Positions 56,118 to 56,473 of a DNA stretch of 64,000 nucleotides are shown piece by piece. The DNA is from a virus. Taxonomy: Duplodnaviria > Caudoviricetes. The notes below the pieces were generated by a model, which searched no databases, was not told the origin of the DNA, and saw only the letters and a list, made by a program, of their open reading frames with translations. Made by a program: the position numbers and the translations under genes. Within the stretch, counting starts at the first letter, position 1. Each line of letters begins with the position of its first letter. Location: positions 1 through 64,000 of IMG/VR virus record IMGVR_UViG_3300028591_000094; one strand, written 5' to 3'.

Positions 56118-56473
56118 AACGGTTTTTCTCAGTCATTATAACCATATTGAAATTCTTGCAAGCCTCATTCCGATTAACTGGCTGCCCATTTACTGTTTTT
56201 ACAATCTTATGGACACGTATATGAGTTATAATTCCAATTTAGGCTGCAGGTTTGTGTATGCGTTTATGAGAACTTGAACATCGATTGGAACGCGCGTGTC
56301 TAGTTCAGTAATCTCAATTTAGCTCGGCGTTGTCCTTACACATTATTGGTTAGTGTTGAGAAGTTACTCCGACTAATGTCATTGTTTATCTTATCTATCA
56401 CCTATAAAATAGGACTTCTCTTTTAAAAGGACTTTCACCGAATTAGCCCGCTTCTACTGTTGAAAAAACCGTT
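56118..56473 (-). ncRNA. free-standing group I intron-like core RNA
   Basis: blocks homologous to the 38098-38618 intron, closed by an AACGGTTTTT/AAAAACCGTT stem, not inside a gene. Confidence 0.75.

Follow-up and report, generated by a model that had tools for sequence, protein, structure and literature searches.

How does the core of a group I intron come to lie between two tRNA-type genes with no exons to join, and is such an RNA a gene in its own right or only what is left of one? The question is raised by a locus in a 64,000-nucleotide stretch of DNA (hereafter 'the window') from a 168-kb IMG/VR virus record, whose completeness estimate of 45% indicates a giant phage. Public sequencing runs with matching sequence come from sheep gut and bovine gut. 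Approximately 30 tRNA-type genes are arrayed on the minus strand between positions 50,800 and 62,000 of the window. The intron-like element, here called the orphan (copy B), resides inside this array at positions 56113-56476 of the same strand (364 nt). As the original prediction held, it is inside neither of its neighbours: it forms the spacer that separates a tRNA-like gene of 118 nt from an 84-nt tRNA with the anticodon UGU, both of which are encoded on the same strand at a distance of 4-5 nt per side.

The locus had been singled out because of sequence blocks that it shares with an intron in a tRNA-Leu gene, and this similarity is genuine. The four blocks quoted each occur exactly twice in the window, within 38230-38560 and 56118-56473, and the two elements align along their cores. 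The blocks do read as described on the plus strand, but the RNA strand is the minus strand, given the minus-strand orientation of the tRNA array and the G·U pairs contained in P3 and P4 of the orphan. The other element (copy A) is a complete group I intron of 521 nt that interrupts tRNA-Leu(UAA) (38098-38618, minus strand; exons at 38619-38653 and 38048-38097). Its excision in silico yields a canonical 85-nt tRNA-Leu(UAA) and places the insertion point at U34/A35. The compensatory differences noted between the two copies in P3 (UCUCC/GGAGA in copy A to GCGGG/CCUGC in the orphan) and P4 (ACGGUG/UACCGU to UCGGUG/CGCCGA) are real as well. An origin of these observations in chance similarity, or in an assembly artefact such as a chimeric contig, deserves almost no credence, although the window does belong to a metagenome-assembled record. 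The chance expectation of the shared blocks in the window is 0, and a profile of the intron family described below matches the orphan with 115.8 bits and an E-value of 5e-35 (nhmmer, profile positions 46-392 of 527), as it matches copy A with 350.7 bits (positions 4-525). Furthermore, DNA contigs from other studies span both junctions between the orphan and the adjoining tRNA-type genes (56029-56162 and 56424-56923).

Bacterial group I introns of the IC3 subgroup are known to interrupt anticodon loops, as in Azoarcus tRNA-Ile and in cyanobacterial and plastid tRNA-Leu(UAA). Judged by their sequences, copy A and the orphan are members of a large IC3-like family, of which more than 85 copies were fetched. 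The habitat of this family is the tRNA anticodon loops of rumen and gut phages. Two invariant blocks of 24 and 22 nt, identical to those of the orphan, are present in 35 and 64 viral contigs of IMG/VR, respectively. ARAGORN, when run with its intron search, located 44 copies in anticodon loops, and the host tRNAs of the family are Arg(UCU), Leu(UAA), Ser(UGA), Met, Thr, Tyr, Trp and suppressor tRNAs. Some copies reside in protein genes, such as the primase gene of the IAS virus. In intact members, the U preceding the 5ʹ splice site and a G in the internal guide form a pair, P2 ends in a GAAA-type loop, the helices P3 to P6 all occur together with a conserved J6/7, P8 sits on an 11-nt tetraloop receptor, and P9 with its GUAA loop is followed by the terminal G. 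P7 covaries strongly across the other 65 members, the orphan being the exception, and covariation of P6 across the family can be read from the alignment. Members range from 450 to 830 nt in length, with large variable extensions in P5, P6, P8 and P9.

Standard models pass over this family. The Rfam group I model (RF00028) returned no group I match at its gathering threshold (50 bits) or E-value cut-off, either in the window or at 15 related loci, and because copy A and these 15 loci go unmatched along with the orphan, the model is evidently blind to the family. The sole sub-threshold match to RF00028 in the genome is the P4-P6 region of the orphan (12.6 bits, E 0.098, model positions 60-140). 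A BLAST comparison with phage records left the orphan unmatched and matched copy A only to 54 nt in the core of the IAS virus primase intron. We found no published description of this intron family, of exon-less derivatives or of natural group I dimers.

RNAs of the intron family seem to be abundant in the rumen. In two sheep-gut metatranscriptomes (runs X3 and X4), conserved family blocks in the region 56111-56413 reach contig depths of 8,000-29,000, and the same blocks have contig depths of 30-535 in DNA runs. A separate feature of these phages is that inserts of 20-100 nt are called in the anticodon loops of many tRNAs (in L169, L016, L034, L036, L054, L057 and other contigs). At this size they cannot be group I introns.

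The orphan was predicted to be a structured RNA that does not splice, and its anatomy agrees with this description, because the catalytic and splice-site elements are absent while the scaffold is intact and compact. The parts that it keeps are P3, J3/4, P4, P5 with its extension, a hairpin that is invariant in the family, P6, P6a, the tetraloop receptor, P8, the P8 bulge and J8/7. In P3, P4, P5, the invariant hairpin, P8 and the receptor, 37 pairs were tested and all are intact. The minimum free energy (MFE) fold of the orphan (-84.7 kcal/mol, z -2.72), computed without constraints, recovers the retained helices and forms peripheral helices too. On the minus strand, the 5ʹ strand of P3 (GCGGG, 56447-56451) pairs with its 3ʹ strand (CCUGC, 56246-56250). 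The 5ʹ strands of P4 (56436-56441) and P5 (56427-56432) each form six of six pairs, with 56324-56329 and 56332-56337, respectively, and a pairing check thus assigns the two 3ʹ strands to 56324-56337. The P5 extension (56358-56420) is closed in the MFE fold by a 7-bp helix (56414-56420/56358-56364), which is homologous to a helix of the related introns L035 and L169 and, as read from the alignment, has three pairs altered on both sides. The invariant hairpin with its 11-nt loop (block 'm1', 56338-56356) is identical to the family consensus. P6 (56312-56316/56267-56271) and P6a (56303-56307/56275-56279), which together span 56267-56316, are formed in the MFE fold. Further 3ʹ, the receptor half CCUAAA and the 5ʹ strand of P8 (56230-56243) pair with the 3ʹ strand of P8 and the receptor half UAUGG (56142-56154, by the pairing check), such that nine of nine P8 pairs and two of two receptor pairs are kept. 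At the junction of P8a and P8, comparison with the family reveals a self-complementary 8-nt bulge, CUUGCAAG (56155-56162).

The missing parts are equally well defined. P1, the internal guide, P9.0, P9 and the terminal G are absent, and P2 is represented only by a decayed piece of its 3ʹ strand (56457-56464), 2-3 of whose eight positions differ from the corresponding bases of L035, L063 and L073. The P7-like region had been described as altered. It is indeed changed, but the stronger statement is warranted that P7 has been destroyed. The 5ʹ strand lacks 5 nt and three of the five J6/7 bases are substituted, and the remnant of J6/7 and the P7 5ʹ strand (56251-56266) no longer contributes to a G-binding helix. 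The 3ʹ strand is unpairable as well: in the alignment, J8/7 is followed by a non-pairing remnant at its place (56128-56141), and all sequence between J8/7 and the relic of the 3ʹ exon is missing. Of the hallmarks of group I introns, the orphan therefore displays the core helices P3, P4, P5, P6 and P8 with J3/4, and has no P1 with a U·G pair, no P7 and no terminal G or 3ʹ splice site. As far as can be told from its sequence, an RNA that has neither a guanosine-binding site nor an internal guide nor splice sites cannot splice, and we predict that assays for self-splicing or GTP-dependent cleavage would be negative.

The ends of the orphan reveal where it came from. They form an 11-bp terminal stem, composed of a 5ʹ strand at 56462-56473 and a 3ʹ strand at 56118-56130. 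The original prediction regarded this structure as a new closing stem that had replaced the splice-site domains. It is instead ancestral, being the anticodon stem of the former host, because the sequences that flank the orphan's core agree with the ends of the L035 exons, with ACGGU and loop bases on the 5ʹ side and loop bases and ACCGU on the 3ʹ side. The relic of the 5ʹ exon comprises ACGGU at 56468-56472 and former loop bases that are now U-rich, and the relic of the 3ʹ exon comprises the A run of the anticodon loop and ACCGU at 56119-56123. The stem is longer than its ancestor, since bases of the former anticodon loop have changed and now pair.

The nearest relatives of the orphan are three introns in tRNA-Ser(UGA) genes (L035, L169 and L063) and one copy in a protein gene (L073). 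One block of 43 nt and another of 27 nt are identical between the orphan and L035, the P3 type GCACC/GGUGC is common to the orphan lineage and the Ser(UGA) introns, and the P5 extension aligns in part. An intact tRNA-Ser(UGA) is absent from the 168-kb record. A 299-kb relative (L169), found via relatives of a neighbouring AAA_28 protein (72% identity for the neighbouring protein), has an intact, intron-bearing tRNA-Ser(UGA) and no orphan. ARAGORN detects no tRNA body at the orphan, where only the two strands of the anticodon stem survive. The orphan is most likely the remnant of an intron-bearing tRNA gene, and the host would have been tRNA-Ser(UGA). We also considered gene conversion from copy A as a process that might have kept the blocks intact, which is unlikely given that the orphan's blocks carry bases diagnostic of the Ser-intron lineage and not those of copy A.

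The array neighbourhood is unstable: the 118-nt tRNA-like gene looks rearranged, a gene for an HNH endonuclease is adjacent, and the flank differs between strains. The tRNA-like gene immediately upstream (56477-56594, minus strand) scores 42.8 bits with the Rfam tRNA model and is not called by ARAGORN. Its acceptor, D and T arms are normal, and a normal anticodon arm is absent. In the predicted fold, this arm is replaced by a small hairpin, a second hairpin resembling a T arm and further sequence. This gene may be a rearranged pseudogene, or a tRNA that carries a tRNA-shaped insert. On the downstream side, the tRNA with the anticodon UGU (56029-56112, minus strand) begins 5 nt past the closing stem and has a long variable arm. 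Its body is of the Ser/Leu/Tyr type, yet its anticodon corresponds to the Thr codon ACA; two further phage contigs (L030 and L051) encode tRNAs that share this type and anticodon. Adjoining this tRNA is a free-standing gene for an endonuclease with HNH and helix-turn-helix domains (55367-55975, minus strand; Pfam HNH, E 6.5e-5). In a relative from a bovine run (X5), the HNH gene and the tRNA(UGU) are swapped for 152 other bases and the end of the orphan is kept. The segment 55349-56108, which carries both genes, appears to be a variable cassette, with conserved sequence on either side in this relative.

A site scan gave no promoter-like or terminator-like sites inside or beside the orphan. The closing stem was considered as a terminator and rejected, as the scan detects no terminator-like site there. 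Elsewhere in the minus-strand array, a 340-nt spacer between tRNA-Ile and tRNA-Glu (56700-57045) is covered by RNA-library contigs at 10-40 times the depth of its flanks. One of these contigs has no differences from the window, and another derives from a relative that is approximately 10% diverged. The spacer has no match to an Rfam family and may encode a stable non-coding RNA.

The bulge in P8 deserves separate consideration. The 8-nt bulge between P8a and P8 is self-complementary in every variant encountered in the family (loci L005-L152). Six of the variants are 8-mers, one of which is self-complementary via G·U pairs only, and the other two are 10-mers, in which 2 nt have been inserted at the centre. 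A double change in the bulge, at positions 2 and 7, distinguishes the intron L071 from the near-identical L078. A hairpin could not account for the covariation of the central positions, and the G·U variant disfavours a site that is recognized at the level of DNA. This pattern of variation suggests RNA-RNA pairing between two introns, which would then form dimers. The orphan bulge is the same 8-mer as the bulge of copy A (38244-38251), and the orphan's receptor has no partner L2 in cis. These two features give a testable form to the earlier idea of a trans-acting partner, hypothetical though it is.

Other exon-less members of the family were also observed (L011, positions 12480-13065; L023/L029; L026; L050; L056; L079). 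In this subfamily, the core begins at P2 and ends after an intact P7 (profile positions 23-394), and a tRNA-like gene follows directly. The guide, P9 and the conserved terminal G are absent. A conserved 5ʹ motif with a covarying hairpin is carried by L011, L023/L029, L026 and L056, and not by L050 or L079. The L011 element is located between the stop codon of a protein gene and a tRNA.

On balance, we lean towards the view that the orphan is a relic of a tRNA gene with a group I intron, a tolerated by-product rather than a selected gene. The ancestor would have been an IC3-like intron in the anticodon loop of a tRNA, most likely tRNA-Ser(UGA). In the phage lineage, the losses would have comprised the tRNA body to either side of the anticodon stem, P1, P2, 5 nt within the 5ʹ strand of P7, and all sequence from the P7 3ʹ strand through the terminal G. 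The result would be an anticodon stem that closes a scaffold consisting of the P3-P8 and P4-P6 domains. The orphan is probably co-transcribed with the array, and RNase P and RNase Z, in processing its neighbours, would free a folded RNA of approximately 360 nt. Release in this stem-closed form is expected because tRNA-type genes abut the orphan so closely on the same strand and because it has no promoter or terminator signal of its own. Recombination and endonuclease traffic, which are presumed to rearrange such arrays, may have left the orphan behind. The relic explanation is the most likely because related phages repeatedly show truncated remnants next to tRNAs. When elements were counted with the family profile, 68 full and 17 internal partial ones were obtained. 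Partial copies include 5ʹ parts that adjoin an intact tRNA of the same identity (L009 and L047) and a 3ʹ part that follows an intact tRNA-Arg (L074), and three full introns have no 5ʹ exon (L022, L077 and L083). Searches of IMG/VR and the metagenome collection returned no diverged orthologue of the orphan. An exact scan of IMG/VR for orphan-specific junction strings gave no match, the orphan's unique P3 string produced 16 chance matches in the metagenome collection, none of them from the family, and five related giant-phage records match the orphan only in the conserved blocks. Synteny via neighbouring proteins led to L169, which has no orphan; a 503-amino-acid protein has no relatives and the HNH protein is not on record.

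Two further explanations grant that the observation is real and assign the orphan a function. It is very improbable that the orphan remains part of a working intron, by splicing from unrecognized exons or as a component of a split group I ribozyme that acts in trans. Split group I introns do exist in organelles and provide a precedent, and the short unexplained inserts in tRNAs of such arrays could be cited in its favour. However, both strands of P7 are missing or unpairable, and this helix could not be supplied as a separate hairpin because it is covalently embedded between J6/7-P3 and J8/7. There is also no internal guide and no terminal G, the ARAGORN intron search gives no host tRNA, and the missing P1, P2, P7 and P9 pieces are not in the 168-kb record, where the family profile (E up to 10) matched nothing beyond copy A and the orphan. 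A better case can be made for a catalytically dead group I scaffold that is selected for a function of its own, which we hold to be plausible but less likely than a relic. RNase P and RNase Z would excise such an RNA from the transcript of the tRNAs, and the closing stem would protect it. Contacts could be made by the 11-nt receptor of P8 (whose partner L2 is gone), by the docking site in P5 (whose partner L9 is gone) and by the self-complementary bulge. Putative targets are full-length introns of the family, such as the one in the pre-tRNA-Leu(UAA) of the same phage, or an intron-recognizing protein, and the orphan might act as a partner, chaperone, competitor or decoy.

The arguments for such a selected RNA begin with the pattern of loss. 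At least five separate losses all affect catalytic or substrate modules and every scaffold helix has been spared, although the mutations cluster at deletion junctions, where a single event can produce several changes. Among conserved sites, 8 of 123 in the kept modules differ from the nearest relatives, compared with 9 of 29 in the leftovers of lost helices (Fisher p 9e-4), a contrast that disfavours uniform neutral decay but is confounded, because the decayed pieces adjoin the deletion junctions. Five of the eight differences in the kept modules are pairing-preserving changes in P3, and these include two adjacent flips from C-G to G-C that are unique among 66 members. P5a carries compensatory changes relative to L035 and L169, and changed loop bases extend the closing stem; the P3 and P5a changes, however, could predate inactivation. 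The original prediction took the compensatory changes between the two copies as a sign of selection, which they are not: copy A and the orphan stem from separate branches of a large family whose active introns covary routinely. The P8 bulge covaries family-wide as intermolecular pairing would require, and its version in the orphan is identical to that of copy A. DNA contigs from two other studies, of strains with a different flank, retain the two ends of the orphan with a single difference. In addition, an exon-less core directly precedes a tRNA at at least seven loci, four to five of which share a 5ʹ motif (subfamily X), and this recurrence makes reuse of the scaffold outside introns plausible. 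Against selection, relics of other shapes keep pristine blocks too (e.g. L074), and no contig from the runs spans the orphan, the depth inside it being dominated by the conserved blocks of other members. No orthologue at a useful divergence was found, and purifying selection after inactivation therefore cannot be separated from a recent origin. The proposal that the orphan is kept under selection is thus consistent with the non-random losses, the intact blocks and the unique flips in P3, and is weakened by the want of a diverged orthologue and by the commonness of comparable remnants. We consider unlikely the more specific version in which a selected dead scaffold would bind family introns via the P8 bulge and the vacant receptor, and would thereby adjust how they fold or splice, or titrate away a factor that recognizes them.

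Comparison with known RNAs places the orphan, read as a probable relic, between several precedents. The parent family resembles the IC3 introns, as they are known from Azoarcus, in its anticodon-loop site, the U·G pair in P1, the GAAA-type loop of P2, the 11-nt receptor of P8, the GNRA loop of P9 and the terminal G, and the orphan has kept the helices of the P3-P8 and P4-P6 domains. The family is set apart by its length of 450-830 nt with variable extensions, by the invariant hairpin with an 11-nt loop, by the self-complementary bulge in P8, by its phage hosts and by scores below the RF00028 threshold, whereas the orphan differs from IC3 introns in having no P1, P2, P7, P9, terminal G or host tRNA. 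Pseudo-introns of organelles and phages are similar to the orphan in that they are truncated, non-splicing derivatives of mobile introns left after rearrangement. However, the core of the orphan is internally consistent and closed by an anticodon stem, its surviving helices are intact, and its losses concern catalytic and substrate parts only.

The lariat-capping ribozyme GIR1 is likewise derived from a group I intron, has no splicing P1 and is not itself an intron. GIR1 has kept a remodelled catalytic core, with which it performs a branching reaction beside the mRNA of a homing endonuclease. In contrast, the orphan has no helix equivalent to P7, and catalysis would not be expected of it. The core features of GIR1 (P7/P15, the three-way junction and the branch site) are absent from the orphan, which matches no Rfam ribozyme family. 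A further parallel is the P4-P6 domain of the Tetrahymena intron, which is a group I sub-domain able to fold without the catalytic centre, as is predicted for the orphan. That domain, however, is a laboratory excision and not a natural gene.

If the orphan is only a relic, it shows how introns are shed in phage tRNA arrays. The first parts to disappear are the tRNA body and the catalytic elements, and the independently folding scaffold outlasts them. A maintained orphan would instead be an unusual example in nature of a ribozyme scaffold reused without catalysis. Should a dead scaffold of this kind truly bind the introns of its family, it would be the first natural trans-acting, non-catalytic group I derivative, and the family would work as RNA dimers. 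Either way, the P8 bulge predicts that introns of this family pair with one another, a property for which we found no report among natural group I introns, and an abundant intron family has been overlooked by standard models.
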